From a virus (taxonomy: Duplodnaviria > Caudoviricetes), in the IMG/VR virus record IMGVR_UViG_3300033412_000012, positions 1-63,882 of that record: a stretch of DNA of 63,882 nt; one strand, written 5' to 3'. The position numbers and the translations under genes were made by a program. The notes beneath the pieces are model-generated. The model was given only the letters and a program-made list of their open reading frames with translations. It made no database searches and was not told the DNA's origin. This document shows positions 46,153 to 63,641 of the stretch, in pieces (positions within the stretch are counted from its first letter, which is position 1; each line of letters starts with the position of its first letter).

Positions 46153-46179
46153 ACAGAAGCGGGGCGACTAACGCCCCGC
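46153..46179 (-). terminator. intrinsic terminator
   Basis: GCGGGGCG-TTAGT-CGCCCCGC followed by TTCTGT. Confidence 0.55.
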
Positions 46180-46211
46180 ACTACTGCATGAATTGCCGGC
46201 GACGCTCGGCG

Positions 46212-47345: not shown

Positions 47346-47427
47346 TTGCCTGCTAGTCCTCAACAAAGCACCCAAATTCCCGCCTACTGCTGCGGTCCCT
47401 TGGCCGGTTCGTGCAACGCCCGGCCGA

Positions 47428-47826
47428 TCATCCCTGCTTGTCAAATTGACCGACCACGCGGTCGTCCACCACGGCCAGCACCAGCCGGTCCGAGTCCCGG
47501 AATTCGACGCCTGGATACTGCTCGCGCATCCGTCGTTGCCAATCGTCCAGTTCCGCTTCGGGTCCCAGACCGACGACGCCGAAGAAATCTGAGCACTTCT
47601 GATCGAAGCATCCAACTGCGCCCGTGTCAGCGTCGTATGTGCTGACCACGGCGCCGTCGTACTCGGCCGACGATAGCGGCCCGTTCTGTAGGAACGTGAC
47701 GCCTGGATACATGCCCGTCACTGCCCGCTGCCACCCATCCAAGTCATAATCTCCGACGGTGCCCTCGAGGACTTCCTCGTCGGCCTTGGACAGACGCTTT
47801 TCGGTCAGCGACGGCGCGCTTTTGGG
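47428..47826 (-). CDS. -1-frame ORF with two copies of the repeat domain also found in the AAA protein
   Basis: LDGWQ..YPGVTF...YDG.VVSTYD and LDDWQ..YPGVEF...VDDRVVGQFD; no convincing start of its own. Confidence 0.55.
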   Translation of the reverse strand, partial: PKSAPSLTEKRLSKADEEVLEGTVGDYDLDGWQRAVTGMYPGVTFLQNGPLSSAEYDGAVVSTYDADTGAVGCFDQKCSDFFGVVGLGPEAELDDWQRRMREQYPGVEFRDSDRLVLAVVDDRVVGQFDKQG

Positions 47827-50800
47827 CGCCGCTTACTCCCGCGTTGTTCGGTCTTGACGATGGTCGTCGGAGCCGCTGCTGACTTGGTGCGTTCCCGCAC
47901 TTCGCGCGCCGGATTCAGGCCCATGTACTGGCACGCCTTGGCGAACTCGTTGAACGCGCGCGTGACTTGCGCCCGGCGAGAAGCCGGAGCCTGATCGCCG
48001 AACTCCTCGTTGCAAGCGCGGTCGAGCTGGTCGTACTTCTCCCACAGACGGTCGAGTTGGTCGCGCGTGATTTTGGACTCGCGCCGAGCCGAATCGGACG
48101 GCGTCCAGATCGAGGTGTTGATTGCGCCTCGGCCGTGCATGTCGTCCCACCAAGCCACTGGAATGCGGCGCGCGCCGGCCAGTTGGTATTGAGTCAACTG
48201 CGGCGCGACGACCTGCGACTGCACGTCCGCGCCGAACTTGGCCTGCAAATCGCGGATGAACGCTTTGTTGTCCGTATAAGGTTGCCAACCGTGACTGCCG
48301 TCCTGATTGGCTTCGCGTTGCAACGATTCCTGCTGCGTCGAAAAGAAGTCGAACGCGGTCATAATCATGGCGCGCGTGACGGGCTCCAACGTCTCGAAAT
48401 CCGAGCGCGTGGCGAGCGACAGGATATCGTCGACCGAATACTCACCCGACAGACTGGACAGAATTTCTGCAACAGGCTTCCCGAAGAACGCCACCTGCAG
48501 CTCCTCGTCATCGGCGGACTTCAGGTCGGCCGGAGCTTGCGGCGCGGTTGCGGACCCGGGATTACCGACCGTGCCGGCGGTAGGGTCCGGCTGCACTTCC
48601 GCCTCCATCACGCCCGAGTCCAGATCGCCGAGGTAGGTGCCGATGACGCGTCCGTCGACACACGCAGTCGTCGTTTTGCCATCCTGCTCAAAAGTCGCGC
48701 CCGGATTAGCCGCCGCAATCTGCGACTTCCACTGCTCGTAGCCGCAAATTGTCACGGGCTCCTGGGTCTGCTCAGTGGATTCAGTCAGCATACGCAGCCC
48801 GGCGGATTTGACACCGGTTTTAGCGGCCTGCTCCAACAGCGCATCGAGACGCTGCTCAGTCCAGCGGTTGCTAGCCTTGCCTTCTGTCAGATTGCGCAGG
48901 ATGCGTTGCACTGACGCCTCGAACGAACGGCCGTAGCAGTAGACCGACGCGATCAGCTCGCGCATCTGGGCAAAACTCATGCCGTCGGTCGCTCCGGCAA
49001 TTTCGCGAATTCGCTCAGCGCCTTCCTTCTTGGCCAACTTGTGCGTGAAGTAGGCCAACCGACCCGCCAGCGGCAGCGATTTCACTTCTACTTTGGTGTC
49101 GAATCGGCCCGACCGCATCACGCGCGGCGGCAGACGCTCCGGATAATTGGTCGTGCCGAGCACCAGCACCCCGTTCATCTGGTCACCGCCGTCCATCAGC
49201 TCCAGCACCGCGTGCTCGTTGTAACTGCACACCTCGTCCATGTCTTCCATGACGACCAGCGCGCGGCGTTCGGGCTCGACTTCTTTGAATTCGCGCAGAC
49301 CAGTAACCACCAGTCCCATATTGCGCATGCCCATGAACACGACCGTATCCTGCGCCACGGCCGCTTCGGTGACTTGCTTGATCAGACACGACTTGCCCAT
49401 GCCGGGCTGGCCGAACATCAGCACGCCGCGCTTGTGGGTCAATCCCATTTCCTGGAACACATCAGCCAAGCCCCAGAAGCGATTGATTTCTTCGTGGATC
49501 GCGTTCAGCCGCTCGTCTTCGAACTGGAGCAACTCGTCCGAGTTGACGTCGATCTTTTCGAAGTAGATACCAGCCATCGACTCCTTGATCTGGTAGACGC
49601 CCGCCTCGAGCGTCGGGCGCGTGCGCCGGACCGTCGACAGCTGGTTACCGGAATCGGCGTATTGAACGAGTACGCGCTCGCGCTTGGTGGCCGCTTCGCA
49701 CAGCGCCTTGGAGGCCGTTGCAGGCGGCCGGGCGATGGTCCAGCAGCGCGGACCGGATTCCGTCTTGCCGATTTCACGGCCCTTGCCGTCGCCACCATCG
49801 ATGTAAGTCGACAGCGGGTTGCCGTCATCGTCCATCGACGTGTAAACGTCGGCATCGCCAACTTTGGTCTTGGCGATGTTGGCAGCCGCATCGTTGTCGT
49901 CCTGCGAGTTTTGCCAGTCGTCACGCGACGTGGTGTCGTCGAATGACGACTCGCCGGTCGGGACCAGCGACGCAGGCAATTGCACATCGGGTTCATTGCA
50001 ATCGACCGAGCCGACCGAAATGGTCTGCACTTGCCCGGTGGTCGGATCGCCGATGACGATGCCGATTTCGAGCGATTCGGCGAAGTCGTGTTCGAACACC
50101 CACGCTTGTTGAGCTTCGGATTGAGTGCCGAATGGCCCGCCGACCGGGCGCCGCGTCGCGCGGTCGATCACTGCGTAACGTTTCATGTTGGATTCCTTGG
50201 TAGGACGTTGATCCGGCTGATGCGGGGCCAGCTCCCGCTGCCATTCCTGTTCAGTCTCGCCCGGCACGGCGGCACTCGACGCCGTGGCCGGCGTGAACCC
50301 GAGCGCGGCCGAAGTCAGTTCGAACACCGTTCCCGAACTGGTCGCCGGGTCCCATGCCCCGATCAACCGGCCGTCCAGCAGCGCCTGTTCGACGCCGCCG
50401 TCGACCTTGCTGTAGACGATGCCGTCCGGAAACGACTTGCGCCACGTCTCGTAGTCTTCCATGTAGCCCATTTCGGACCCCGTGTAGACCGGACGCTCGT
50501 CGCCCTGGATGCCGCCCTCGGGCCACTCGGCGTCCTGCGGCAGGTCGGGCGACAACGGGATGCCGTCGATGGTCTGTTCCGGACCAGTGCCCATCGAAAT
50601 GCCACCCGCGACAGCCTCAGACGGACCCCCGGGGACACCCGGAGGAGGCCCTTCGCCCTCGGGCGGTACGAAGGTAGGGAGCGACTGGGGCGAGCCCGAC
50701 GAAGGGGCCGCGTCGGGCTCGCCGGCCGGCTCCAGAGCGGCGGACGACGGATCGGGCTGCGCCCCTTGCAGCGTGGCATTGGCGCGCAAGTAGGGAATGA

Positions 50801-50948
50801 CGTTGGCCGGGAAGTACTGTCCCATCTGTTCGAGCGTGCTGTACAACTCGTCCAGGTCCACGCCCGGGTTTGTCTTGTAGAGTTGAGCGACGCCGTTCAA
50901 CTCCAGCTCAAGCGTGCCGGCGCTCGGATTGGCGGTAATCTTCGCCAT
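47805..50948 (-). CDS. large modular protein with central classic AAA+ ATPase domain and repeated ~45-aa domains
   Basis: Walker A GQPGMGKS, Walker B VVMEDMD, TTN and RSGRFD motifs. Confidence 0.85.
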   Translation of the reverse strand: MAKITANPSAGTLELELNGVAQLYKTNPGVDLDELYSTLEQMGQYFPANVIPYLRANATLQGAQPDPSSAALEPAGEPDAAPSSGSPQSLPTFVPPEGEGPPPGVPGGPSEAVAGGISMGTGPEQTIDGIPLSPDLPQDAEWPEGGIQGDERPVYTGSEMGYMEDYETWRKSFPDGIVYSKVDGGVEQALLDGRLIGAWDPATSSGTVFELTSAALGFTPATASSAAVPGETEQEWQRELAPHQPDQRPTKESNMKRYAVIDRATRRPVGGPFGTQSEAQQAWVFEHDFAESLEIGIVIGDPTTGQVQTISVGSVDCNEPDVQLPASLVPTGESSFDDTTSRDDWQNSQDDNDAAANIAKTKVGDADVYTSMDDDGNPLSTYIDGGDGKGREIGKTESGPRCWTIARPPATASKALCEAATKRERVLVQYADSGNQLSTVRRTRPTLEAGVYQIKESMAGIYFEKIDVNSDELLQFEDERLNAIHEEINRFWGLADVFQEMGLTHKRGVLMFGQPGMGKSCLIKQVTEAAVAQDTVVFMGMRNMGLVVTGLREFKEVEPERRALVVMEDMDEVCSYNEHAVLELMDGGDQMNGVLVLGTTNYPERLPPRVMRSGRFDTKVEVKSLPLAGRLAYFTHKLAKKEGAERIREIAGATDGMSFAQMRELIASVYCYGRSFEASVQRILRNLTEGKASNRWTEQRLDALLEQAAKTGVKSAGLRMLTESTEQTQEPVTICGYEQWKSQIAAANPGATFEQDGKTTTACVDGRVIGTYLGDLDSGVMEAEVQPDPTAGTVGNPGSATAPQAPADLKSADDEELQVAFFGKPVAEILSSLSGEYSVDDILSLATRSDFETLEPVTRAMIMTAFDFFSTQQESLQREANQDGSHGWQPYTDNKAFIRDLQAKFGADVQSQVVAPQLTQYQLAGARRIPVAWWDDMHGRGAINTSIWTPSDSARRESKITRDQLDRLWEKYDQLDRACNEEFGDQAPASRRAQVTRAFNEFAKACQYMGLNPAREVRERTKSAAAPTTIVKTEQRGSKRRPKARRR

Positions 50949-50960
50949 GCGAGGCTCCGC

Positions 50961-51860
50961 TCAGTTGGAATACAGCAAGTTGAAGCGGCGGCGGCGCTTG
51001 GTCAGACCCACTTTGAACTTCTCGCCCGACTCGATCAGCGTCAGCCGGTCGGCGGCCACGATGATGCGCTTGGCTTCGACCACGCCATTCAGCGTCGAAA
51101 CGATCTCGACTTGAGCCGCATCGGCCGCTTCATTGTAAGACACCACGCGACCGACGCGTTCGGCCTTGCCGTCTTGCCATGCCACGTGCGCTTCCTCGAT
51201 TTCAGGCATGCCGGACGGCGCCCCCAGCTGCTGGTCGTCGACACCGTTACCGAGATCGCCGCCTTGATCGTCATCCTCGGCTCCGGCCGCCGTCGTGCCG
51301 TCCTCGGATTTGGGCGCCTTGATCAGGGCGTCGACTTGGTCGAGCAAGCGGCTGGCTTCATCGGCGTTGCCGGCCTCGAGCGCCGCGTCGACTTGACGCA
51401 GCAAGTCATCCACGCGTTGCTTGCCGGCTTGATCCAATTCCCACGACGACGCTTCGGCCACCAGCCGGCGCGACTCGACCGTGGCCGCTGCCGAATAATT
51501 ACGCCCACCCGTTATTGTCCCGGACGGCTTGTCGAACTGCTCGGGCTGCACACCTTCCTGGCCGGTCGTGACGGGTTCTTCCTCGACCACCGAGAACGTC
51601 ATCACGTCAGCGCCATCAACGGCGCCGTCTTTGGGCTCGGACACGCTGTAACCCGCATCGCGCAGGAACCCGACAATGCGCGACACTTTCTCGCGCGACT
51701 GCTTGTCCTTCTGCCCCAGGAACACAGTTACTTGCTGGCGGTCAAAGTCGTAGCGCGTGCGCAGCCCGGCGATGCCCAAATACGAGGTGATCGCGGTTTC
51801 GACCAGCGATCGCTTGTCCTTTTCCAGCTGGCCGGACAGGCGCAGTTCATGCAATTTCAT
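50961..51860 (-). CDS. acidic probable head-core protein
   Basis: GGAG RBS before MKLHE; many xxE-A/S/T motifs. Confidence 0.65.
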   Translation of the reverse strand: MKLHELRLSGQLEKDKRSLVETAITSYLGIAGLRTRYDFDRQQVTVFLGQKDKQSREKVSRIVGFLRDAGYSVSEPKDGAVDGADVMTFSVVEEEPVTTGQEGVQPEQFDKPSGTITGGRNYSAAATVESRRLVAEASSWELDQAGKQRVDDLLRQVDAALEAGNADEASRLLDQVDALIKAPKSEDGTTAAGAEDDDQGGDLGNGVDDQQLGAPSGMPEIEEAHVAWQDGKAERVGRVVSYNEAADAAQVEIVSTLNGVVEAKRIIVAADRLTLIESGEKFKVGLTKRRRRFNLLYSN

Positions 51861-51885
51861 GTTGTCAGGACTCCGTCGCTGCAAT

Positions 51886-52245
51886 TCAGAGGATTCGCCC
51901 CATCACTTCGGCGTGGAAGGCGGCGAGTTGATCTGGCGTCATTTCAGCCTGTTCAGCAATCGCCGCTGGAGACATCAGGCGACCGAGGACGGCCTCCGGC
52001 GACGCCTGAACGACGGGGGGCGTGCCAGCGAGCGAATTTTTGAGGTCCAACCGCACCGGCCGGCCGGCGAACAAGAGGTGTTGAATCTTGTCCACCCGGT
52101 CCGCCGAGAAGTTGGCCGCGAGAATAGTTTTCACGAAATCGAAGCCGTACACCGTGTACGTGTCCGCGATCAAGTCGTGCACCAGGAACGACTGGTCGTC
52201 GAAGTTGTACTGCAAATCGTACACCGAGTTGAGGCTGTCATTCAT
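51886..52245 (-). CDS. hypothetical protein
   Basis: 119 aa; heads the head operon. Confidence 0.65.
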   Translation of the reverse strand: MNDSLNSVYDLQYNFDDQSFLVHDLIADTYTVYGFDFVKTILAANFSADRVDKIQHLLFAGRPVRLDLKNSLAGTPPVVQASPEAVLGRLMSPAAIAEQAEMTPDQLAAFHAEVMGRIL

Positions 52246-52339
52246 GCTAATGTTCCACCAGTACTGACAAGGTTCTGGCCGAGTAGTGCGGATGGCCAGC
52301 GGCGCGTCTTAGAGTACCACAACCCACAGGAGCACAACA

Positions 52340-52522
52340 ATGCCATCTTTACGCGAACAACTGAATGTGCTGCTCGACTCGCTGCCACTGGAGCAAGCGC
52401 AGCAGCAAGCGATTACCGCGTTCCGCGAAGCGCTGCCGACGCCGGAATTGCGCACAGCGTTCGACACGCTGTACATCATCCTGACTTATCCGTCCGACCG
52501 GACGGCCGCCATCACCCCATAA
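52340..52522 (+). CDS. small hypothetical protein (opposite strand)
   Basis: AGGAG RBS; 60 aa. Confidence 0.55.
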   Translation: MPSLREQLNVLLDSLPLEQAQQQAITAFREALPTPELRTAFDTLYIILTYPSDRTAAITP

Positions 52523-52715
52523 TCAGTCGTTTCGCCGTGACCGACTGACTCGCTTCATCCAGACTCACCACCACTTTCGCGCCGTGCTTGGCGCGCAGCG
52601 CCTGCACGATGCGTTCGGCGGCGGCCCGATCGACTTGGTTGGACTCGTTCAACGGCGCCACGGCCGCCGCATCGGCCGCCAGCTCGGCATCGCGAATTTT
52701 CACTGTGAAAGCCAT
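52512..52715 (-). CDS. small hypothetical protein
   Basis: GGGAGG RBS before MAFTV. Confidence 0.7.
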   Translation of the reverse strand: MAFTVKIRDAELAADAAAVAPLNESNQVDRAAAERIVQALRAKHGAKVVVSLDEASQSVTAKRLIMG

Positions 52716-52735
52716 TTCTACCTCCCTCATAAGGC

Positions 52736-52758
52736 GAGGCCCCGGCAATCGGGGCCTC
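52736..52758 (-). terminator. hairpin after nrdB
   Basis: GAGGCCCCG/CGGGGCCTC inverted repeat. Confidence 0.5.
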
Positions 52759-52786
52759 TTACCCGGTTACTGACAGCACGGTGATA

Positions 52787-53776
52787 TCACGCGCTCACTA
52801 GCGTGGCCGGACGGCGCCAGATGTCGGCCGACGAGCCCGTCATGGCGCCTTTGGCGTAGTCGATCACGCGCATTTTGAAGAAATCAGCGATTTGCACGCC
52901 GGACAACTGCTCGGCCATCCAGTCCTCCACCGTCGAGTGCTGGATTTGGAAGATGTCTTTCAGGCCAAGACTGTGCAGGCGGCGCCCGGCGATGCGGCGC
53001 GTGTATTGCTTGGTTTCCTCGGCCGTCATGCCGCGCACGTCACCCATTTCGAACGCCAAGTCGATGAATTTATCTTCCATCGACACGCCGTCTTCGAAGA
53101 TCCCGTAGATGGCGGACTTGAGCGAGTCGTTCCACAGACCCGGGTTTTCTGAAATGAACTGGCGAAACAGCCACGACGTGCCTTCGCAATGCAGCGATTC
53201 GTCCCGGATCGACCACGACACGATCTGTCCCATTCCGTTCATCATGCCGTGACGCGGGAAGTTGAGCAGCATCGAGAACAGCGCGAACAAGCTGACGCCT
53301 TCGCCCAACCCCGAGAACGCCGCCAGCGAGCGCGCCACTTCGTACGGGTTGTCGTGGTTGAACTGCATCAAGTAGTCGTGCTTGTCCTTCATTTCCTTGT
53401 AGTCCAGGAACGCCGAGTAAGTCGTCTCGGGCATCCCGATGGTATCTAGCAGATAGGAATAAGCGTGCTGGTGGACCGACTCCATGTTGGCGAACGCGCG
53501 CAACATCATGGAAATTTCTTCGTTCTTGAAGAACGGCAAGTAAGTGTTGGTATACGCTTCGTTCGCGATTTCGCGGTCCACTTCCGTGAAGAAACGGAAG
53601 ATATGGGTGAGCAGGTTGCGCTCGCGGTCGGCCAGCTTGTTCTTCCAGTGATCGATGTCGGCCGCCAACGAAATTTCTTCAGGCAGCCAATGAATTTGCT
53701 GCTGGATCTTGTAGTATTCGAAAGCTTCCGGGTAAACGAACGGCTTGTACCAACCCTTTGGTTGCTGCATCGACAT
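52787..53776 (-). CDS. nrdB: ribonucleotide reductase class I beta subunit
   Basis: HWLPEE, FFTEVD, MESVH..AY, EGVSLF, RDESLH and DFF..R..DY motifs. Confidence 0.95.
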   Translation of the reverse strand: MSMQQPKGWYKPFVYPEAFEYYKIQQQIHWLPEEISLAADIDHWKNKLADRERNLLTHIFRFFTEVDREIANEAYTNTYLPFFKNEEISMMLRAFANMESVHQHAYSYLLDTIGMPETTYSAFLDYKEMKDKHDYLMQFNHDNPYEVARSLAAFSGLGEGVSLFALFSMLLNFPRHGMMNGMGQIVSWSIRDESLHCEGTSWLFRQFISENPGLWNDSLKSAIYGIFEDGVSMEDKFIDLAFEMGDVRGMTAEETKQYTRRIAGRRLHSLGLKDIFQIQHSTVEDWMAEQLSGVQIADFFKMRVIDYAKGAMTGSSADIWRRPATLVSA

Positions 53777-53863
53777 GGTTGTTGCTCCTGAGTTCAGATA
53801 AAGGACGACCCGCTGGCTGGCGGAGCCGAACGGGTCGTCACTACGAGTCACTACGAGGCGGAT

Positions 53864-55690
53864 TCAGCCTTGGCAGCCCAAGCATTCGGAGTACTTCTCA
53901 GCATCGTTGGCCGCCGGTTGCCCGAGCGAAATCTCGCGCCGCTGCGTCGAACGCGACACTTGATCGGCGACTTTGACCGAGATCGAACGGCAATAGTAGA
54001 CCGATTTAAGCCCGCGCTTCCAAGCGGCCAGCAACAAGCGATGCGCTTCTTGCCAGCTGATAGTCGGACGCAAGTACAAATTCAACGACTGAGCTTGATC
54101 GATGAATGGTTGGCGGTCAGCCGCATGTTGGATGTACCACATGGGGTCTGTCTCAAATGCAGTCTTGAACACGTCGCGATGCCAATCCGACATCCATTCG
54201 AATTGCTGCACCGAGCCCTCGTGCGCGATGATCGAACGCCATGTTTCGTCGGTGTCACGACCGTACTCGCGCAGCACGCGGATCAGGTGCTTGTTTTTGG
54301 CAATATAAGAGCCCGCTTCCGACTTGCTCAAGTAAGCGTTGGCGGCGTACTGCTCAGTGCTGGGCGACGTGTTGCCGCAGATTTTGCTGCTGGACGCATT
54401 CGGGGCCAGCGCCATCGTGTACGAGAAGCGTACCCCGTGCCCTTTGGCGTCGGGCGCCTCGCCGCGCTCGAGTGCCAGCTCGCGGTTGGCGATGTCGATG
54501 TGCGTACGCAAATGTGAGAAAATGTTGCGATTGGCCGATTGTGCCAGCGCCGACTCGAACGGAATATTCTTCGATTGCAGGTAGGAGTGGAATCCCATCA
54601 GACCAATACCGATCGAACGCTCGCGCGTCGCCGAGTTGACGGCACGCCACAATTCCTCCGGAGCGTGGTCGATGAAGTACTGCAGCACGTTGTCCAAAAA
54701 CTCGGCGATGTCGCGCAAAAACAGCGGGTCGTGGCGCCACTCGTCGAAGTACTCGGCGTTCGGGCTGAGCAAGCAGCACACGGCGGTGCGGTCTGGCGCC
54801 GTGACCAGCGTGATTTCGCTGCACAAGTTGGAATGATGGATACGAAGCCCGAGGTCTCGCAACCAAGGTTTGAGCCCTGCGTTCGACGTGTCGATGAAGT
54901 GCAGGTAAGGCTCACCCGTTTGCTGCCGAGTCGCAATGATGGCTTCCCACAGCGCCATCACTGAAATGGTCTTGGTGACCGCTTTCGAATGCGGGTCGAT
55001 CAATTGCCACTGATCGAGCGTGTCGAACACGTCGGCCGTCAACGGAGCACCACGGTATTCGCCAGTCGACAGCGCTTCGACGCGTTGCATGAACTCGTTC
55101 GACAAGTTGACGCCGTGGTGCAAATTCAAGCACTTGCGGTTCATGTCGCCACCGGTCGGCTTGCGCATCGTGACGAATTCCTCGATTTCGGGGTGGCTGT
55201 CGTCCAAGTAGGCGCAGTACGACGCTTTGCGCACGCCGGTCTGATTCACCGCTTCGATCTGAGCGTCGATCAACTTGAGCCAGGGCATGATGCCGCCTGA
55301 CTTGGCGCCTTTCGAAGTCTTGGTGCCGAGCCCTCGCAAGTGCCCCCAGTAACCGCCGATGCCGCCGCCTTCGGAGGCCAGGAAAGTGTTTTCCTTGACG
55401 TGATACATGATTTCGCGACGCGAGTCACCGACGTAGTTGAGTTCGCAACTGATCGGCAGGCCGCCACCGCGCGCGGCATTGGCCAAAGTCGGCGTCGCGT
55501 ACATGCACCAATGCCGGCTGACGTAACTGTAAATGCGCTGGGCATGCGCGTCATTACTGGCAAAAGCTTGCGCTGCCCGGGCGAAAGCTTGTTGTGGCGA
55601 CGTTTCGTCTTCCAGCATGTAGCTGGTTCGCAACGTTGCCAAGCCCTCAGGAGTAATGAGGGAGTCGAGGGATGGATCAATCTTGACCAT
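53864..55690 (-). CDS. nrdA: ribonucleotide reductase class I alpha subunit (no ATP cone)
   Basis: ATPTL, PISC, GGGIG, SNLCSEI, APNASS, KSVYY and C-terminal CLGC. Confidence 0.95.
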   Translation of the reverse strand: MVKIDPSLDSLITPEGLATLRTSYMLEDETSPQQAFARAAQAFASNDAHAQRIYSYVSRHWCMYATPTLANAARGGGLPISCELNYVGDSRREIMYHVKENTFLASEGGGIGGYWGHLRGLGTKTSKGAKSGGIMPWLKLIDAQIEAVNQTGVRKASYCAYLDDSHPEIEEFVTMRKPTGGDMNRKCLNLHHGVNLSNEFMQRVEALSTGEYRGAPLTADVFDTLDQWQLIDPHSKAVTKTISVMALWEAIIATRQQTGEPYLHFIDTSNAGLKPWLRDLGLRIHHSNLCSEITLVTAPDRTAVCCLLSPNAEYFDEWRHDPLFLRDIAEFLDNVLQYFIDHAPEELWRAVNSATRERSIGIGLMGFHSYLQSKNIPFESALAQSANRNIFSHLRTHIDIANRELALERGEAPDAKGHGVRFSYTMALAPNASSSKICGNTSPSTEQYAANAYLSKSEAGSYIAKNKHLIRVLREYGRDTDETWRSIIAHEGSVQQFEWMSDWHRDVFKTAFETDPMWYIQHAADRQPFIDQAQSLNLYLRPTISWQEAHRLLLAAWKRGLKSVYYCRSISVKVADQVSRSTQRREISLGQPAANDAEKYSECLGCQG

Positions 55691-55735
55691 GCTTGTATTG
55701 TTTCCAATGCGGGCGTATTCGATCAGGCCCGTCGA

Positions 55736-56377
55736 TCACGCGTGCTGATCGGCGATGCCCAGCTTTTGGTCGAAGATCAGGCGGAGAAGGAGGGCGCGAA
55801 ATTCAAACGGAAATGCCGGGTGAGGGAGCTTGTCGACGTACACTCGCAACGCCTGCTCCAAGCCCTCAACCACGAATTTCCAACGCTGGTCCGGGTAACG
55901 GTGGCCCAACCCCTGATTATGAAACGAGAATATGTACCCTTCAGTCAAATCGGCTGTCTTGACTAGGTGAGTAACCAGTTCACTCCAGTGACCGACGACG
56001 CCGCGCCGCTGCCAGAAGTTGACTTCGAGCTTGGAAAAAGCGTCCTTGATGGCCGGAATGCGCTTGGTCGGAGCCGGCGGATCGCCCAGTTCCCACTCTG
56101 GCAAGTCGTGCACCAGCGCGCAAATCAGAATATTGCGCTCCTCGACGGGATCCACTGCGCAGTCCGACTGCCCAAGCTCGCAGCGACACGCGACGAGCGC
56201 GCTGTACAACTTCAGCGCGATCATGGCCACGCGGTAGTGGTGCTCAGCGTTGTTCTGGTCGCGCATCGTGCGAACCATGTGATAACGTGACACGTGTGAC
56301 TGCGCAAAAATGTCGTCAAACTCGAGGCACGAAGCGCTGACCACGGGGTCATTCCGGAGATCCTCAAGCATCGCCAT
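55736..56377 (-). CDS. HD-domain deoxynucleotide phosphohydrolase (YfbR/DatZ-like)
   Basis: SHVSRY...QNNAEHHYRV...ALVHDLPE..LGDPPAPTK...KTADLTE...NQGLGH. Confidence 0.8.
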   Translation of the reverse strand: MAMLEDLRNDPVVSASCLEFDDIFAQSHVSRYHMVRTMRDQNNAEHHYRVAMIALKLYSALVACRCELGQSDCAVDPVEERNILICALVHDLPEWELGDPPAPTKRIPAIKDAFSKLEVNFWQRRGVVGHWSELVTHLVKTADLTEGYIFSFHNQGLGHRYPDQRWKFVVEGLEQALRVYVDKLPHPAFPFEFRALLLRLIFDQKLGIADQHA

Positions 56378-56870
56378 CCTCTGCCTTGACGTGGTACATC
56401 AAACCGTCGGCACGGAACTCCCAGCGGCGCGTTTCATTCAGAGCGATTTTGTCACGCAAGAACTGGTCGACGTCGAGCCCTTGCTGATAACCCACGTCAG
56501 CCGCCAGGATAATCGCGTCGGCAATTTCGGACCCATCGCCGGGGTTAGCCCACAACTCGGGCAGTTCGCGCATCGACAGGCGCACCAGCGTGTCCCACGG
56601 TTTGCGATTCGGAAATACTCGATCAGCCCATCGACCCGATTGCTCGACCAGCCCCGAAAAGGTTTCCCCGTAGCGATACAAGCGCTCGACTCTGGAAAAC
56701 CACTCGTCGGTGAAGTAGTGGAACCCGCCGCGATTGACGATTTCCATCTTGTGGCGGTTGACCGTGGTGTCGTAAGCGAGGCCGCGATACCGATAAACGC
56801 GGTTCGTATCGGTGAAGATACACAGGTCGCCAACACAAACGACGCGGGATTGCGGCTCGAGCGTGCTCAT
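56364..56870 (-). CDS. DUF550/MazZ-like (d)NTP pyrophosphohydrolase with N-terminal extension
   Basis: WADRVFP...RELPEL.ANPGD.SEIAD...DKIALNETRRW...YHVK. Confidence 0.75.
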   Translation of the reverse strand: MSTLEPQSRVVCVGDLCIFTDTNRVYRYRGLAYDTTVNRHKMEIVNRGGFHYFTDEWFSRVERLYRYGETFSGLVEQSGRWADRVFPNRKPWDTLVRLSMRELPELWANPGDGSEIADAIILAADVGYQQGLDVDQFLRDKIALNETRRWEFRADGLMYHVKAEDGDA

Positions 56871-57229
56871 GCGAGCGCTCGCTCTTTACGGCCCAGGACA
56901 GGTAGCGATTCGGCCGTGCGGTCAACGCGCAGGGCTTCCATCAGCATCATGTACTGGATGATGTCGAGGAAGCGCCCCTGCATGGGCTCGGAACGGTCGC
57001 GTTCGACGCCGTGCAGCAAATCGCGGCTATACGTAACGATGGACTGCCAGTGCTTGGCGGCCAGCACCATCACCACAGTTTCGGGAGGGATGCTCAGCAT
57101 GTCACCGAGCTGTTTGAAAGTGGACAGCTGGTCATCGGTGGCGCGATACTCGATGCCCTTGGTCTTGTTAATATGCTTGAGTTGAGCGAACAACTGCTCC
57201 TGCAGTTGTTCGAAGTCTTCGAATCGCAT
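56867..57229 (-). CDS. MazG-like/nucleotide-modification-associated (DUF1599-like) protein
   Basis: KGIEY....D.LSTF...KH...SEP...RFLDIIQY. Confidence 0.6.
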   Translation of the reverse strand: MRFEDFEQLQEQLFAQLKHINKTKGIEYRATDDQLSTFKQLGDMLSIPPETVVMVLAAKHWQSIVTYSRDLLHGVERDRSEPMQGRFLDIIQYMMLMEALRVDRTAESLPVLGRKERALA

Positions 57230-57392
57230 GAGTCGGGTCTCGCGTGAAGGAGTGGACAGCTTACCTGTCCTAACGCTTGAACCCGCCTACGCACTGACTT
57301 GCAGCTTGCCGTCCTGACGGCGGCGCCGTAGCGCTTCTGCCGGGCTCGTCGCTACTTAGATAGCGGCCACCAGCGACGAACCCGATGACGGG

Positions 57393-57983
57393 TCAGAACG
57401 GCACGTCGGCGGGCCGTTCCCAACGCACGCCTTCGATCACACAAGTCTCCAGGATTTGGACTTTGAAGTAACCAAACCGACTGCCGGGCTTTTGCTTGGC
57501 CGCTTCCTCGCAGTTACGCCGTGCCTGTTCGATCGTCCGCGAAAAATGGTACGGTGAACGGCCAGCCACTATGGCCAACCCGGGCAAGCCGCACGACCCC
57601 TCGTCCTCGATATCGGGCGGCACGATCTCCGCTACCACGTAGAGCGTATGGAGACCGCCCGGGAAGCACAAGTCGTGCAGCTGCGCAAACGTGAACTCGA
57701 CACTGGCCGAATGCATGCCGCTATCGTCATGCAGCGAATCACGCCACAGACTGTAACCCTTGCCGGTGTCACCCACCAAGACCGATTTCAAACGGCGCCC
57801 GCTGGCCGTGCGCTTGAAACTGACCACCTCGGGTTCGAAATCAGCGTCGTAAGACGGCCGATACAAGTAGTCAGGGAATCCCGGAATTTCCACAAAGCCG
57901 TTGCGCAGCCAGCCGGCCCGCGTCGTCGGCATTCCGTCGTCATCGCTGGCCGATGTGTAATCTTCTGCCACGTCCGCTTTCAT
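57393..57983 (-). CDS. hypothetical protein (NUMOD4-like EIPGFPDY segment)
   Basis: AGGAG RBS; ATGA overlap. Confidence 0.6.
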   Translation of the reverse strand: MKADVAEDYTSASDDDGMPTTRAGWLRNGFVEIPGFPDYLYRPSYDADFEPEVVSFKRTASGRRLKSVLVGDTGKGYSLWRDSLHDDSGMHSASVEFTFAQLHDLCFPGGLHTLYVVAEIVPPDIEDEGSCGLPGLAIVAGRSPYHFSRTIEQARRNCEEAAKQKPGSRFGYFKVQILETCVIEGVRWERPADVPF

Positions 57984-58366
57984 GACTCGCTCTCCTGCCG
58001 CGCGTTGGGGTTGCTCGGTCGCGTCTCGACGACGGTCTCGTAACGCCCCATGGCGAGCGGCACGGTCGGCACTTGCGACACCGTCAGCACGACGTTGTGC
58101 TCCGCTGCCAGAGCAACGAGACGATAGGCTTGAGCTTCAATGACGCCGGGCCAATAGTCAGCCGGAACGGTATCGCCCGGCTGTTCGGGATCGTCGCACC
58201 GGATCGTGAGATTCAAGCTACCCTTGTCGGCCAACCGCTGCAGTCGCTCGACTTCGTTTTTGAGAATCTGACGCTTCTCGTCGCGCGGAATGACTACGTA
58301 CTCGCGCTCGGCCACGTGTCCGTGCTCGTCGACGCCTAAGTGAGTATCTCGATTCGTGATGGTCAT
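57980..58366 (-). CDS. hypothetical protein
   Basis: GGAG RBS; AAEHNVVLTVSQVP..PLAMG. Confidence 0.65.
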   Translation of the reverse strand: MTITNRDTHLGVDEHGHVAEREYVVIPRDEKRQILKNEVERLQRLADKGSLNLTIRCDDPEQPGDTVPADYWPGVIEAQAYRLVALAAEHNVVLTVSQVPTVPLAMGRYETVVETRPSNPNARQESES

Positions 58367-58458
58367 GGATGGACTCCGGATAAGCCGACGGCGACCCCGC
58401 AGGGCCGCCGCCAGACTGGTTTACGTAACGATGAACGCGCCGCAGCGCGCGGGCACTA

Positions 58459-58965
58459 CTAGGACCCGAGCGTGTGGCCCAACTCCGACAGCAGCTTGCC
58501 GACTTTTTTGCGCAAACGCAGTGTCGACAACGAGCTGCCCGAGTTTTGGCAGGTGTAACCGAGCGCCGCCGCCATTTCCTGGACCGAATCCGGATAACTG
58601 TCGCCGCAGTAAAACACCGCCAGATTGGTGTTTTCCAGGTTCAGGTACTGCTCGAGCTGCTGCATACGGACCATCAGGAAAACAAACTTCGACTCCTGCG
58701 CGCTGGAGTTGGCCACGACGCGAGCCACCAGCTGATTGAACCCGACGTACTCGGACGGGTCGATGGCCGACTCGTCCTGACGCGTTTCCTGAATCACTTC
58801 GAAGTTGTCCGTCACTTCGCGCGACGTGAACTTGCGGTAGTAGTCGATCGCCCGATGCGTCGCCACCTTATGCGCGTGGCCCAGCTTGCGCCAGTAGTCG
58901 TACTCCTCACGGAAGATGGTTTTGCCGCCCTCGACCGAGGACACTCGTTCGGTATTATTGCCCAT
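58459..58965 (-). CDS. sigma-factor-like protein (region 2.4- and region 4-like segments)
   Basis: KVATHRAIDYYRK; SVQEMAAALGY...LRLRKKV. Confidence 0.55.
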   Translation of the reverse strand: MGNNTERVSSVEGGKTIFREEYDYWRKLGHAHKVATHRAIDYYRKFTSREVTDNFEVIQETRQDESAIDPSEYVGFNQLVARVVANSSAQESKFVFLMVRMQQLEQYLNLENTNLAVFYCGDSYPDSVQEMAAALGYTCQNSGSSLSTLRLRKKVGKLLSELGHTLGS

Positions 58966-59138
58966 GTCTGTAACCCCAATGTTCAGACGTGTTATTGCGG
59001 AGTCTCAGCAAGTCCGAGGTGCACAAGTCTCGTTCCGCTGAGTGGTAAGACAGCTGATTCTGCTGCCATAGCGCGTCGCTGTCCGGAGGCGCGCGTGGCG
59101 TAATGGTTCATGCGAGTCGAGCGAGCCGACTCAATCGC

Positions 59139-59462
59139 TCAAAACGGAAGTTCGTCGTCGACCTCGATGGGCCGCTGATGGTGGAGACCGAAGCGCCCCG
59201 CACACACGCCCGAACGAGGGTCCAAAGCCGCCCGGATGCCGCAACCGGCAGTGCGACGGCAGTCAAACGGGTCGTCAGTCGGACGCGCCACAATCGACCA
59301 GTCATCGTCATCGCACTGGTCGGTCAACTTTGAGGCCAAATAGGTGGCGTATTGCCAAGTCTCGAACGTGCCGAGGTCTTCCCAGACAGCTGAGGAAGAT
59401 CCGATCAGGGCGTCGGTGGAATGATGATAGCGAGGTTGGGTCACGACGATGCAGTAAGCCAT
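59139..59462 (-). CDS. hypothetical early protein
   Basis: AGGAG RBS directly below a promoter. Confidence 0.65.
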   Translation of the reverse strand: MAYCIVVTQPRYHHSTDALIGSSSAVWEDLGTFETWQYATYLASKLTDQCDDDDWSIVARPTDDPFDCRRTAGCGIRAALDPRSGVCAGRFGLHHQRPIEVDDELPF

Positions 59463-59506
59463 GGTGTTCTCCTATAATGCCATCTGGTCGGCAGGACTAC
59501 AGACGG

Positions 59507-59535
59507 ATTATACCATGCGACAGCCGTACCTACAA
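59507..59535 (-). promoter_or_regulatory. sigma70-type promoter
   Basis: TTGTAG-N17-TATAAT with extended -10 TG. Confidence 0.7.
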
Positions 59536-59554
59536 GTACCAACCAACGCGAAAG

Positions 59555-59930
59555 TGGCATCAGGATGCCGTCTATAGAACGATTGCCCGCGAGACGGGGC
59601 AGTTCGAGGAGTGTGGTAGCGCGACCACGCAGGAGGACTTGCGCGCTCAGCGGGTACGGCTCAGCGCGGGGTTCGGACAGCACAAGCGGATAAACCGAGG
59701 GACCCCTAGGGGTCCCTCGTGCAACGCAACAGATTGGGCTGAGCGTTGCAATCCACTGCCATGTGCAGGTAGGCAGGACTCGCGACGGCCCGACAGGAAA
59801 CTCCGACGCACCACACGTCTTCGCCGCGAGGACCCGCCTCGTCACCACTCTGAAACTCGCAAAGCAGTGGCGAGGTCAAGTCCAGTACACCAACAGTTCC
59901 TACTAAACGAGTCAGACCACCGACTCACCA
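59555..59930 (-). ncRNA. candidate structured non-coding RNA, unassigned
   Basis: Nested helices whose mismatches read as G-U pairs on the minus strand; no credible ORF. Confidence 0.5.
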
Positions 59931-59936
59931 ATCCAG

Positions 59937-60194
59937 TCAACGCGCGTACTGCTTGTTCCGCAAATCGAGCCGCCGCTGGATCTCGAGCGCACAATCGGTA
60001 CAAGTAACACAGCCTGCTTCGACGCGCTCTTTTTCCACGATTGCTTCGTCGCACTCCAAGCAACGACCAAGATTGGCTACCAGCTGCGCCGCCAGTTGAA
60101 CGTTGACTTCCCGAATTCGACGCGCCAACTCGTCCACGTCTCGCCGCTGCATATTCTCAGCGTGCTCGATAACCTCGTCTGAATTCACGTCCAT
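59937..60194 (-). CDS. DksA/TraR C4-type zinc finger protein
   Basis: GRCLECDEAI..ER......CTDC; GAGGG RBS before MDVNS. Confidence 0.8.
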   Translation of the reverse strand: MDVNSDEVIEHAENMQRRDVDELARRIREVNVQLAAQLVANLGRCLECDEAIVEKERVEAGCVTCTDCALEIQRRLDLRNKQYAR

Positions 60195-60276
60195 GCCCTC
60201 GTTGTTCAAACCTTGATAAGAATGAGGGCCGCTCGCGGCGGCCCTCAAGTGCTGCTGCTACGGCTCGGTTCCTATA

Positions 60277-61575
60277 TTAATGCGGAACGTCGTCGAAGTT
60301 GGCTTCACGCGTCGCGGCTTGACATTCGGTCTCGTGGGCACAGGTGATGCAGTCCGGATGCATGTCGCCGCCGCCGCTCATGACTTCCGGGTTCTTGCCG
60401 AAGGCCAGATCGCGATCATCGGACGGGCATTCTTTGATCGGGATCGTAGTACGTCGCGAGCCCTCGTTGCGAGCGCGGTCGTCCTCACGCTCGTCACTGC
60501 CACGAGTCCGCGTGCGCGAGCTGCCGCGCTCTTCGGTGTCACGACTGCGAGTCTCGCGCCGGTCATCGTCATCGCGACCACGGCGCTCGTCCGTGCGGCC
60601 ACGAGGGCTAGCGCGCGAATCGTCGCGCGGCGGCGGACGGCGGTCATCGTCGTCGCGGTTGAGTGCACCGCCCCGGTCGTCATCGCGGTCGTCTCGTCCA
60701 CGTCCACCTCGGTCATCATCGCGGCTGCTGCGAGTCTCGCGCCGGTCGTCTCCCTCACGGCCACGCGAACGCGAGCTGCCTCGGTCGTCATCGCGACCAC
60801 GGCCGCGCGAACCGCGATCATCCTCGCCTGGATCGAACGCCGTCCCGCGCTCCGCCAGCAGACGAGCCACGAACTTGCGGAACGATGCCAAGTCGTCATC
60901 GCCGATGTAGGACTTCGACGGCTCGCCTTCGTCGTAGTAAACGCGCGACAACGGGTATTCTTCGAAGTCGCGCGGCAACTCCGGCAGTTCATAGTCGCGC
61001 AAGTCGAACCCCCACGACGCCGAGCCTTTGTTGCCGCCCGTGAAAGTCAGCTTCAGGCCCTTGGCCTCCACTTCGGGATTCATGACTTGACGCAGGTCGT
61101 CGCGGTCCAGACCGGCGATGAAAGTCTGGAACGAAATGAACACACGCGGCGACAGCACGATGTAGCTGGCTTCCTTGACGCGCAGATACTTGCTTTCTTC
61201 GGCGTTGGTCTTGAAAATGTAGCCCGTGATGACGCCTTCCTCGCGATTCTTGAACTGCCACGCCTTGCCGTACTTGGCATCCTCGAGCTTCTTGACTTCC
61301 TTGCAGATGCGGCAGTGCTCACCTTCACACGGGACCCGGCCGCCCATGTCCTTGCCGAGGTTGTGCATGTTGATGACCCGCGCCGCGCGCAGACGCTTCT
61401 TGCCGGTTTCGGCCGACACGTGCAAGTCCGGCCAGATGCGCATCGTGTACGTACCTTCGTCGAGAAACATCAGCGGCGTGGTCGGGCGGTCGCCACCGAC
61501 TTTCTCGGTGTACGCTTTCGCTTCGTCACGCATCCCCTCGAACAGGGATTCGTCGTCGTATTTACTGCGGGCCAT
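60277..61575 (-). CDS. single-stranded DNA-binding protein (gp32-like) with Arg/Asp-rich tail
   Basis: GTYTMRIWP...H...PC....C.IC Zn core; G..LKLT; long RD-rich region. Confidence 0.7.
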   Translation of the reverse strand: MARSKYDDESLFEGMRDEAKAYTEKVGGDRPTTPLMFLDEGTYTMRIWPDLHVSAETGKKRLRAARVINMHNLGKDMGGRVPCEGEHCRICKEVKKLEDAKYGKAWQFKNREEGVITGYIFKTNAEESKYLRVKEASYIVLSPRVFISFQTFIAGLDRDDLRQVMNPEVEAKGLKLTFTGGNKGSASWGFDLRDYELPELPRDFEEYPLSRVYYDEGEPSKSYIGDDDLASFRKFVARLLAERGTAFDPGEDDRGSRGRGRDDDRGSSRSRGREGDDRRETRSSRDDDRGGRGRDDRDDDRGGALNRDDDDRRPPPRDDSRASPRGRTDERRGRDDDDRRETRSRDTEERGSSRTRTRGSDEREDDRARNEGSRRTTIPIKECPSDDRDLAFGKNPEVMSGGGDMHPDCITCAHETECQAATREANFDDVPH

Positions 61576-61659
61576 GGTTGACTCCTAGTCGTCGGTTGGT
61601 TGCCAGTGATCGGCGGATTTGATGCCCATTACTACGGCTGACACGCAGCCGTCACTACT

Positions 61660-63279
61660 TCAGAAAAACAAATCAGCGTTGCGGCGTTTGGGTTTCTTGC
61701 CGCGCCCAGCCCGGCCAAGTTCCTGGCCCAGACCAGTGGCGCCGTCAGTGACCCCAAGGACCAAGTCGCGGAACAAGTCGTTCCAGGATGGGTAGCGCAG
61801 CGCTGGATCAGTCTTGTAATACCCGACGATGGCTTCTTCGCGCGCCGCCGCCTGATTCTCCAGCACGTTGGAGCCCACGTCGTACAAGTTAACGACGACA
61901 GACCCGAGGCCGCCTCCCTTGCGCGTCGTGCGACCGGTGCGCTGGATCGTGCCGCGTGCTTTGCGACCTTCCGTCAGGAAGATCGTATTGAGCGATGGAA
62001 TATTGGCGCCTTCATTCAAGTGCTGCGTCACGATCAGCAAGTTGACGCGTCCGTCGGCCACGCGGTCTTTGATGTTGCCGGAAGTCAAAGTCGGGTCGTT
62101 CGAACGGATCTGGCCGGCGCCATACCAGCACACGCAGTCGTCCAGCCCTATTTGCTCCCAAATTTCGATGCCGTATTCCTTCTTTCCGACCGGGATCAAC
62201 GCTTGTCGCCCGGTCTTGGCCAGCGCCCGTGCTGCTCGGGCGATGGTAGCAATGCGATCCCGGTTGCCATAGACGAGCGGCGCGATGTAACGCCAGTCGG
62301 TCTTGCCGCCAATTTTCGGATCGTCCCAGACGAACGGGAACGACATCACGGTCGGCGTCTCGATATGCTCCTTGACTTTCTCAATCGGCACCGTATGCAG
62401 CACCGGGCCGCACGGCGCGACGGCGCGGGCCAAGTCAGGCGACAGTTCGTCGAAGCCCTTGCCGTACGAGTCCTGGTCTTCCTGCGTGAGCGTCGCCGAA
62501 AACCCGAACGAGCGGTGCAACTGCGGCAAGGCCCACAACAGCAGATTCCACGACTCGCAACTCCAATGGTGTGCTTCATCCGACAGCAGCACGCGAATCG
62601 TGTCGGCGTGCGGCACGAAGCCCGATTGCAAGTCGTTGTTGACAGCCGAAGCATGGGCGACGATCACACGACCTCGGTCCGGAAACTCATCCAAGTGTCG
62701 CAGCTTCGGATATTCGACGAACACGTCGTCCGGCACTCCGTATTGCTTCATGCGCTCGATGAAGTTGTCCAACGTCGGGATGCCTGGGGCAATGAACATC
62801 ACATTGCCGTGCTCCATTGCAGCCAGCGCCAGCGCCACTTCCATTTCGGTCTTGCCCGAGCCGACCGGTGCCTGCACGAGCCCGGCCCATTGGTTCAGCA
62901 CGTCGCGTAAGCAATCCTGCTGATAACCGCGCAACTGGTCCCACATCCACTGCGGAACGCGCAGCTCGGGCAACGCAGGCTTGTTCTTAATGCGCATCCG
63001 CAGGCCGCGCTCCCGGGCCAAATACAGGAGCGCCCCGAGCCCGACGACGGTGCGGCCGTTCAAGTCGGAAGCCAACGTCAGCGTGTACGACACGAAGCGC
63101 TTGCGGCGCTCCTCCTCGACCCATTCGAAGCGCTTCTCGACGTAATCGAACGACGGCAACAAGTCATCCGGAATGACGGCCAAGTAGCCGACCAGTTCGA
63201 TCTCGTGCATAGGAAATCCTGCTAGTTGAGCAGCGAGCGACGGAGCGTCATGAGCTGCTGATTCAACCCAACGCGTCAA
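61660..63279 (-). CDS. SF2 DNA helicase (UvsW/XPB-like)
   Basis: LRGYQ, APVGSGKT, DEAH, FSAT, EGANIP and QRTGRTTR motifs. Confidence 0.9.
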   Translation of the reverse strand: MTRWVESAAHDAPSLAAQLAGFPMHEIELVGYLAVIPDDLLPSFDYVEKRFEWVEEERRKRFVSYTLTLASDLNGRTVVGLGALLYLARERGLRMRIKNKPALPELRVPQWMWDQLRGYQQDCLRDVLNQWAGLVQAPVGSGKTEMEVALALAAMEHGNVMFIAPGIPTLDNFIERMKQYGVPDDVFVEYPKLRHLDEFPDRGRVIVAHASAVNNDLQSGFVPHADTIRVLLSDEAHHWSCESWNLLLWALPQLHRSFGFSATLTQEDQDSYGKGFDELSPDLARAVAPCGPVLHTVPIEKVKEHIETPTVMSFPFVWDDPKIGGKTDWRYIAPLVYGNRDRIATIARAARALAKTGRQALIPVGKKEYGIEIWEQIGLDDCVCWYGAGQIRSNDPTLTSGNIKDRVADGRVNLLIVTQHLNEGANIPSLNTIFLTEGRKARGTIQRTGRTTRKGGGLGSVVVNLYDVGSNVLENQAAAREEAIVGYYKTDPALRYPSWNDLFRDLVLGVTDGATGLGQELGRAGRGKKPKRRNADLFF

Positions 63280-63299
63280 ATCGTTCAGGCACTACTTCA

Positions 63300-63560: not shown

Positions 63561-63641
63561 TCAAGTTGATAGGTAGTGCGCAGCCGATCTGTCTCGTTCG
63601 AGATTCGCAGCACTCGACCACCACAACCCAGGAATTCCATC

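Follow-up and report, generated by a model that had tools for sequence, protein, structure and literature searches.

We analysed a linear viral record of 63,882 bases (IMG/VR record IMGVR_UViG_3300033412_000012; hereafter the window, which is the entire record; CheckV completeness 53), in which nearly all genes lie on the minus strand. The genes of interest form a block that reads, in order of transcription: a gene for a protein of 120 amino acids (aa), a gene for a 168-aa protein related to MazZ, a gene for an HD-domain protein (HD protein) related to DatZ, and the genes nrdA and nrdB, encoding a ribonucleotide reductase (RNR). Overlaps of 4 bases (stop of the 120-aa and start of the 168-aa gene) and of 14 bases (end of the 168-aa and start of the HD gene) connect the first three genes, which would represent the helper part of the pathway by which 2-aminoadenine (Z) is placed in DNA. 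A reading of the letters alone (the sequence-only reading) had described three overlapping genes directly upstream of nrdB and an nrdA without ATP cone, and this description holds: the open reading frames (ORFs) were recovered as listed in Table 1 and are supported by Pfam.

Table 1. Positions of the genes in the block and of the stretch that purZ usually occupies
Feature	Position	Strand	Remarks
120-aa ORF	56867-57229	minus	phrog_6802 family, all-helical
168-aa ORF	56364-56870	minus	MazZ-1-type, predicted nucleotide diphosphohydrolase (dGTP to dGMP)
HD protein, 213 aa	55736-56377	minus	DatZ-type, predicted dATP triphosphohydrolase
nrdA	53864-55690	minus	RNR large subunit, PF02867 and PF00317, without ATP cone
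nrdB	52787-53851	minus	RNR small subunit, PF00268 (1.7e-67), phrog_86 (6.9e-76)
Usual place of purZ	57230-58366	minus	163-base gap and two orphan ORFs
196-aa orphan ORF	57393-57983	minus	at the usual place of purZ
128-aa orphan ORF	57980-58366	minus	at the usual place of purZ

The large RNR subunit matches PF02867 at 2.4e-97 in addition to PF00317, and Pfam lists no ATP-cone family for it at E ≤ 0.1. The ATP cone is the domain by which dATP shuts RNR off, and a cone-less NrdA would therefore escape this shut-off. The protein shares some 51% identity with the NrdA found in Pelagibacter podophages, and its gene has no counterpart in the closest complete relative that was found, the uncultured phage G004 (IMG/VR UViG 3300017646_000001; 117,656 bases, terminal repeats, CheckV completeness 100), nor in the cultured relatives Xanthomonas phage phiXF1 (113.5 kb) and Pseudomonas phage QdP_Psa3 (114.8 kb). 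The 120-aa, 168-aa and HD genes are all kept in close relatives (63-72%, 59-68% and 66-77% identity, the last range being that of the 120-aa protein), and contigs of strain variants from other soil sequencing runs (X3 and X6) span the three-gene module; among the differences listed, the only length change near the module is a single extra base of X6 between nrdA and the HD gene. Relatives closer than G004 lie on contigs of 56,124, 66,732 and 89,884 bases in the protein collection. The three helper genes are probably co-transcribed with the RNR genes; a scan of 52300-58600 for promoters and terminators returned sites no more numerous than in shuffled sequences.

Two predicted helper enzymes and a helical companion

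The HD protein was assigned by Pfam to the YfbR-like family PF12917 (36.8 bits, cut-off 25.9) and by PHROGs to phrog_7076, 'dATP triphosphohydrolase' (4.7e-16), with the dNMP phosphatases of phrog_318 following at 4.9e-4. The best match among PDB sequences was DatZ of cyanophage S-2L (6ZPA, E 1.6e-6), and E. coli YfbR was found at 0.013. These matches bear on the most sober explanation of the gene pair, namely a generic YfbR-type 5'-deoxynucleotidase beside a generic DUF550 house-cleaning enzyme, whose adjacency is unrelated to base substitution. YfbR-like is indeed the best Pfam family of the protein, and E. coli YfbR, although the weaker PDB match, shares the R-aromatic and G-D-x-P-x-P-x-K motifs; nevertheless we hold this explanation to be very improbable, as DatZ is far ahead of YfbR in the PDB search, the two PHROG scores differ in the same sense, the overlapping order of mazZ and then datZ is that of the Z clusters, and the protein groups with purZ-linked DatZ in a phylogenetic tree (see below).

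In an alignment of 14 sequences the residues R31, H46, H90, D91, G98, D99, K105, K140 and D143 of the HD protein are invariant, and Q41 and A44 are kept as well. The counterparts of S-2L DatZ R19, Q29, A32, G74, P79, K81 and K116 are retained (P79 as seen in the pairwise match to S-2L DatZ); the triphosphate-binding residues (R19, K81, K116) and the HD metal ligands are present. For S-2L DatZ, passages of PMC8065100 describe the following roles: R19, K81 and K116 are phosphate-binding, W20 serves to select the sugar (deoxyribose), I22 excludes the 2-amino group, P79 contacts the base, and Q29, A32 and G74 are conserved. The window protein has Tyr32 at position 20 and Met34 at position 22 (S-2L numbering). 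Position 22 holds I (28), L (5), M (4), V (1) or N (1) in 39 purZ-linked IMG/VR proteins and A, A, T and G in the four HD proteins of purZ-free phages, and methionine occurs there too in the purZ-linked DatZ of Bm1, G004 and the record G006. A bulky residue is thus present at this position, and methionine may act like isoleucine. The likeness to DatZ proposed by the sequence-only reading, whose quoted motifs are all present, is in this way borne out by the sequence, the key residues and the phages that hold relatives, and the protein is predicted to destroy dATP.

For the 168-aa protein the Pfam match to PF04447 (21.6 bits) stays below the cut-off of 23, the PHROG match is phrog_801 (1.8e-6), and S-2L MazZ (7ODY, E 5.7e-11) is the sole match among PDB sequences. 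An alignment of the protein with two close relatives and seven MazZ of purZ phages (10 sequences) has as invariant residues W81, E102, E105, E115, D118, I121, L122, D125, K141, N145, R148 and W150. In the part of PMC8342488 that deals with S-2L MazZ, the metal ligands are given as E35, E38, E50 and D53, with R83 also named, and I56 and D60 are described as guanine determinants that all MazZ-1 retain, MazZ-1 frequently bearing N-terminal fusions. All of these are kept: the ligands and R83 correspond to E102, E105, E115, D118 and R148 of the window protein, and I56 and D60 to the invariant I121 and D125. The last two would fit an enzyme that feeds dGMP to PurZ, and the 168-aa protein is accordingly predicted, from its residues, to turn dGTP into dGMP, the PurZ substrate. 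In a tblastn search it matched 20 phage records, and purZ adjoins the match in seven of the eight that were examined; the assignment as a MazZ/DUF550-like protein, made beforehand from the letters, is therefore supported by sequence, key residues and the phages in which relatives occur. The protein has an N-terminal domain of its own (about 70 aa, rich in beta-strands), of which residues 16-64 are modelled as strands with a predicted local distance difference test (pLDDT) score of 77-87, and its catalytic part is poorly modelled (mean pLDDT 57).

The 120-aa protein belongs to phrog_6802 (function unknown; 6e-11) and is linked to MazZ by gene fusion and by neighbourhood. It is 31% identical (E 8e-14) to residues 1-117 of a 242-aa ORF of G004, residues 149-240 of which match the MazZ core of the window (36%, E 3e-13); since both match this ORF, which itself also falls in phrog_6802, the 120-aa and 168-aa genes of the window represent a single fused gene in G004. 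Homologues occur in 3 of 80 IMG/VR PurZ loci (L082, L090 and L092), in the order purZ, mazZ, datZ and then the homologue. In a comparison of these 80 loci with 62 genes of the window, no other genes were shared, save for weak matches (capsid and protease in L119, and one match in L057). The sole GenBank phage that matches the 120-aa protein is Microcystis phage Mel-JY34, and as the PurA/PurZ family PF00709 was not found there, phrog_6802 is not confined to Z phages.

The structural searches with the 120-aa protein were less telling. No match was found in Pfam or among PDB sequences, the AlphaFold2 model is a helical bundle (pLDDT 72), a Foldseek search against PDB gave nothing at E ≤ 0.001, and the best result of the wide VIA-align search (Z-score 6.7) consisted of generic helical proteins. 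Two structural leads from the Atlas, both below threshold, concern DUF1599 (template modelling score, TM, 0.63) and PF18909 (TM 0.51). The earlier label 'MazG-like' is left with these two leads and is a weak one. A complex prediction for the 168-aa and 120-aa proteins gave a score of 0.01 and no verdict. On the grounds of the fusion and the neighbourhood, the 120-aa protein may well be an accessory part of MazZ.

Relatives with and without purZ

The distribution of the HD family was inspected in GenBank phages, in IMG/VR and in a larger sequence collection. The HD protein matched 57 GenBank phage records by tblastn, among which known Z phages, 21 Aeromonas and 5 Shewanella phages, and a PurZ query matched 201 records, with neither Aeromonas nor Shewanella among the organism names listed. 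Twelve GenBank phage records were checked for PF00709: it is present in eight (S-2L, SH-Ab 15497, VLCpiS6a, Bm1, PMBT28, BUCT555, Kokobel2 and LR756501) and was not found in the other four (Shewanella phage Spp001 and Aeromonas phage pAh6-C, both Chaseviridae, MW202897 and Acinetobacter phage Ab1-TPeters). The match in LR756501 (L016, 735 kb; 256 bits) is ordinary-PurA-like and lies 300 kb from the MazZ-like ORF. This ORF (LR756501.1, 4983-5279; 98 aa, DUF550-like) adjoins a clamp-loader-like gene.

A profile search of 1.84 billion representative sequences recovered 1,271 HD relatives with E ≤ 0.001, 87 of them with E ≤ 1e-10. Searches with the single HD protein or with small alignments in IMG/VR, JGI metagenomes and GTDB genomes yielded no close relative, only two distant loci and one 1.3-kb fragment, and a search with the helicase of the window for close relatives found nothing. 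The wide HD alignment was too divergent for a locus search and a narrower alignment of the window clade was used instead, which returned four loci in IMG/VR: MazZ is present in all four records and PF00709 in three, the fourth record stopping 614 bases upstream of its own MazZ. In an IQ-TREE analysis (quick search, 71 rows, unlabelled representatives distant from the window clade being left out) the window protein falls in a clade of 23 rows together with G004 DatZ (Shimodaira-Hasegawa-like approximate likelihood-ratio test, SH-aLRT, 97), and the nine of nine purZ-linked DatZ and the window clade are split from all four HD proteins of phages without purZ with moderate support (SH-aLRT 82). A phylogeny had been named as a check by the sequence-only reading, and this tree groups the protein with purZ-linked DatZ and, at the moderate support given, apart from the purZ-free HD proteins.

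The four purZ-free phages are instructive in their own right. Their HD proteins are of the same family as that of the window (24-31% identity) and some of them are annotated 'dATP triphosphohydrolase'; unlike the window protein, they have A, T or G at position 22 and stand on the other side of the tree, and in these four records tblastn with the 168-aa protein gave no match of the MazZ type. In MW202897 (L015, MW202897.1) the neighbours of the HD gene carry the annotations pyrimidine hydroxymethylase and glucosyltransferase, and in Ab1-TPeters (L021, PP763253.1) thymidylate synthase and kinase. Given the PF00709 checks and these neighbours, the HD family also occurs in purZ-free phages, in some cases beside genes annotated for pyrimidine modification, and it may remove canonical deoxynucleoside triphosphates in other base-replacement pathways too. 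The choice that had been offered beforehand, between a Z genome and a different nucleotide-substitution pathway, was for this reason a fair one.

The window encodes a tail sheath, a tube, baseplate parts, a portal, a protease and a capsid protein. The best GenBank matches of the capsid protein are those of phiXF1 and QdP_Psa3 (57.5% and 57.6% identity, in the order as listed), and the matches that follow these two phages and G004 are only 24-28% identical and come from diverse large phages. The designation 'T4-like myophage' given beforehand has therefore to be replaced: sheath and tube are present, and the closest relatives are phiXF1, QdP_Psa3 and G004 (approximately 114-118 kb). Three further capsid relatives (G001-G003) are fragments, in which purZ, MazZ and the HD protein were not found, and phiXF1 has only a weak HD match.

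The identity of G004 to the window amounts to 62% for the capsid protein, 58% for an AAA protein, 48% for the portal, 42% for the protease, 31% for the helicase and 28% for the sheath. Its gene order is: helicase, SbcCD-like, SSB-like (single-stranded-DNA-binding), dCMP deaminase, RecA-like, family A polymerase, ligase, DnaB, HIRAN, PurZ, the 242-aa ORF and DatZ. The G-S-x-G-K-G motif is common to G004 PurZ and five cultured PurZ. At the position of S23 in PurZ, PurA has an aspartate. A passage of PMC8342488 describes S23 as conserved in, and unique to, PurZ. A partial UvrD-like ORF of the window (63576-63881) matches a divergent gene of G004 (40814-40996), after which helicase and SSB-like gene follow in the same order, and past mazZ-datZ both have the AAA protein and a 467-aa protein, followed by portal, protease and capsid protein. 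Among IMG/VR PurZ proteins, those most similar to the one of G004 (38-39% identical) are found in G009 (95,001 bases) and G010 (250,817 bases), at the loci L057 and L059; within 10 kb of these two loci no matches of the window DatZ, MazZ or 120-aa type were found. The gene of the window at 60277-61575 (minus strand) encodes a protein of 432 aa that combines a zinc-finger-like Cys cluster with a long tail rich in Arg, Asp and Ser; no Pfam or PHROG family was found for this protein, which is 32% identical to the G004 protein at the place expected for SSB.

The shared elements and differences with described Z systems can be summarized as follows. Like the Z cluster of S-2L (PDB 6ZPA, 7ODY), the window has a MazZ-1-type enzyme followed by an overlapping DatZ-type HD enzyme, with conserved metal ligands, triphosphate-binding residues and guanine determinants. 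Unlike in S-2L, there is no purZ upstream, MazZ has its 70-aa N-terminal domain and is preceded by the separate 120-aa gene, Trp20 and Ile22 of DatZ are replaced by Tyr20 and Met22, and the genes are linked to nrdAB; moreover, S-2L is a 45-kb siphophage with PrimPol, whereas the window phage has contractile tail genes and its relatives measure about 115-120 kb. With G004 the window shares a DatZ of the same tree clade, with Met22 and the same Q-H-A ending, the presence of both the 120-aa family domain and MazZ, and collinear flanks, the Z proteins being 30-36% identical. Specific to G004 are purZ directly upstream, the fusion of the 120-aa domain to MazZ, the lack of nrdAB, and the dCMP deaminase, RecA-like protein, family A polymerase, ligase and DnaB genes between the SSB-like gene and purZ. 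The siphophages SH-Ab 15497 (Acinetobacter), PMBT28 (Salmonella), VLCpiS6a (Klebsiella) and Kokobel2 (Providencia), of 43-48 kb and with a family A polymerase beside purZ, have the order purZ-mazZ-datZ and, as in the window, a MazZ-1 with an extra N-terminal domain, which is of neither the window 70-aa nor the phrog_6802 type. DUF550 is often fused to a DUF5664 domain, according to a passage of PMC12884076. Finally, Z systems with non-homologous helper enzymes follow the same logic, in that dATP and dGTP are removed and a PurZ-type enzyme is fed, and none of these enzymes was found among the window ORFs scanned against Pfam (7 + 60 ORFs).

The place of purZ and the fate of the pathway

Taken together, the family memberships, conserved residues, gene order and kinship described above point, at the level of sequence, to a likely Z-type genome, and we consider the best account of the block to be a phage with a Z genome whose purZ lies in the portion that was not sampled (probability about 0.6). 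RNR would make the deoxynucleoside diphosphates and keep the deoxynucleotide supply going; MazZ, with the 120-aa accessory protein, would convert dGTP to dGMP; PurZ, presumably encoded outside the window, would turn dGMP into the Z precursor; and the DatZ-type HD enzyme would remove dATP and so keep adenine out of the phage DNA. In this arrangement it is a matter of prediction which substrates the two enzymes act on, whether purZ is present and which bases the DNA contains.

Several observations weigh against this account. Firstly, purZ is missing: as the sequence-only reading had said, it is not in the window, where PF00709 has no match anywhere and tblastn with three PurZ proteins returned noise only (best E 0.17) and no remnant. 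It is absent in particular from its usual place upstream of mazZ. PurZ is encoded directly upstream of mazZ in seven of seven cultured phages examined that have the mazZ-datZ pair, and upstream of mazZ also in G004, L082, L090 and L092; the records G005 and G006 carry purZ too. Compared to G004, the window lacks the block that runs from the dCMP deaminase via the polymerase to purZ (15 kb) and has gained nrdAB, and because it is collinear with G004 on both flanks, the loss of this block could be a real deletion. In addition, phiXF1 and QdP_Psa3 contain neither purZ nor MazZ (nor the 120-aa protein). Secondly, the kinship of the HD protein is less clear in other comparisons: in a FastTree of 164 rows the window clade stands, weakly (support 81), beside the clade without purZ and DatZ does not form one group, and the identity to DatZ of cultured purZ phages (23-28%) compares with 24-31% to HD proteins of purZ-free phages. 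Thirdly, all of the 39 purZ-linked IMG/VR proteins have Trp at position 20, which makes the Tyr of the window unusual; exceptions among purZ-linked DatZ are BUCT555 (Tyr) and G004 (Phe), and variants with Tyr20 are reported on Z-enriched contigs in a section of 10.1101/2025.10.22.683976.

A first alternative is that purZ was lost and that MazZ, DatZ and RNR reshape the nucleotide pools of a phage with canonical DNA, where they may serve an early depletion of dATP and dGTP that halts host replication, or the recycling of purine nucleotides. The empty purZ place, the missing purZ-ended block at a collinear site, the related HD proteins of the four purZ-free phages and the cultured relatives without the pathway all speak for such a loss. 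We nevertheless regard it as unlikely: an enzyme that destroys dATP would be expected to starve the phage's own replication unless dATP is replaced, the genes are conserved in relatives of just 59-77% identity, the HD protein groups with DatZ of purZ phages, and purZ stands beside the MazZ match in seven of the eight records examined.

A related alternative places a different modified purine, or Z made via a route outside the PurA family, in the phage DNA, with the same helpers and an unrecognised synthetase. The two family-less orphan ORFs (57393-58366) lie exactly where purZ is usually found and would be candidates for that synthetase; Z phages are known to have further sets of helpers and a second way to the Z monophosphate dZMP, as described in parts of PMC12884076, and HD genes of the wider family lie beside pyrimidine-modification-annotated genes in MW202897 and Ab1-TPeters. 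The orphan ORFs, however, have no Pfam or PHROG family, no likeness to PurZ or to any nucleotide enzyme, and no homologue in G004, phiXF1 or QdP_Psa3, and in the Atlas they gave no usable hit by features and only weak, small-domain rows by structure. As MazZ has kept I56 and D60, which fits a supply of dGMP to PurZ, and no other base-modification family occurs among the window ORFs scanned against Pfam (7 + 60), this route seems to us distinctly improbable. It is somewhat less improbable, and still doubtful, that the lineage has truly lost purZ and keeps a selected module of DatZ, MazZ and accessory protein wired to the cone-less RNR, either with a synthetase of a new family, for which again the orphan ORFs are the candidates, or for the destruction of adenine and guanine pools with a purpose other than Z.

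Against these alternatives, the account of a Z-genome phage with purZ elsewhere gains from the incompleteness of the record. The absence of purZ applies to the fragment and to the usual place only, as the record covers some 53% of the genome. No polymerase, DnaB-type helicase or ligase was found in the window, all three of which are present in G004, and the genes for replication must therefore be located outside it, as may purZ. In this size class, a phage that has a helicase, an SSB-like protein and an RNR of its own is very likely to encode a polymerase too, and the polymerase gene would reside in the unsampled part, possibly with purZ alongside. That the record of 63.9 kb could represent a complete genome was considered and rejected: it has no end repeats and lacks the three replication genes, and its kin measure 114-118 kb.

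Habitat, other genes and meaning of the findings

Sequence words of the window were retrieved in 20 soil or rhizosphere sequencing runs from 12 studies among the matches listed, five of the runs containing at least half of the words; the window may itself derive from one of these runs. Strain-variant contigs in run X3, from another study, cover 44000-63882, and among the contigs of the four runs that were compared one, of 3,152 bases and from X3, extends 2.8 kb beyond the right end of the window.

Some other genes of the window, all on the minus strand, deserve mention. A 106-aa protein (36643-36963) with an Acb2/Tad1 hairpin domain (PF24729, 1.1e-15; phrog_717) may act as a sponge for cyclic-nucleotide defence signals. 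A 788-aa protein (10380-12746) has four stretches that match the ART-PolyVal ADP-ribosyltransferase domain (PF18760, 2e-90) and a 1,138-aa homologue in G004 (69368-72784). Directly downstream of the major capsid gene lies a gene (37488-39020) for a 510-aa protein of a homing/HNH endonuclease family (phrog_3339, 1e-91), which was not found at the corresponding place in G004, phiXF1 and QdP_Psa3. The baseplate region contains genes for a PAAR-like protein (14496-14795) and for a 709-aa protein (18940-21069) with a VgrG3-like C-terminal domain (PF21277, 7.9e-73).

Enzymes of the DatZ and MazZ type and the Z pathway as such are already known. Descriptions of natural Z-DNA mostly concern siphophages and podophages in the range of about 40-80 kb, and no other families are named in the abstract of PMC8599892. 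Our full-text search of a literature library gave no description of a purZ cluster in a myophage, and the main texts of PMC12884076 and 10.1101/2025.10.22.683976 do not contain the terms 'myovir' and 'jumbo'. New are the occurrence of Z-pathway genes in a lineage of contractile-tailed soil phages of approximately 115-120 kb, of which G004 is a complete example, and, for the window itself, the split accessory gene, the linkage to RNR and a mazZ-datZ pair without adjacent purZ.

A soil phage lineage with sheath and tube genes thus holds the pathway, with G004, which has a family A polymerase, as its complete representative, and phrog_6802 emerges as an uncharacterised family that recurs alongside Z clusters. 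The window phage represents a rearranged version, in which purZ has become unlinked or was lost, the accessory domain of MazZ was split off and RNR was attached. If purZ proves to be absent, the phage would provide a natural test of the role that DatZ and MazZ can have without purZ.

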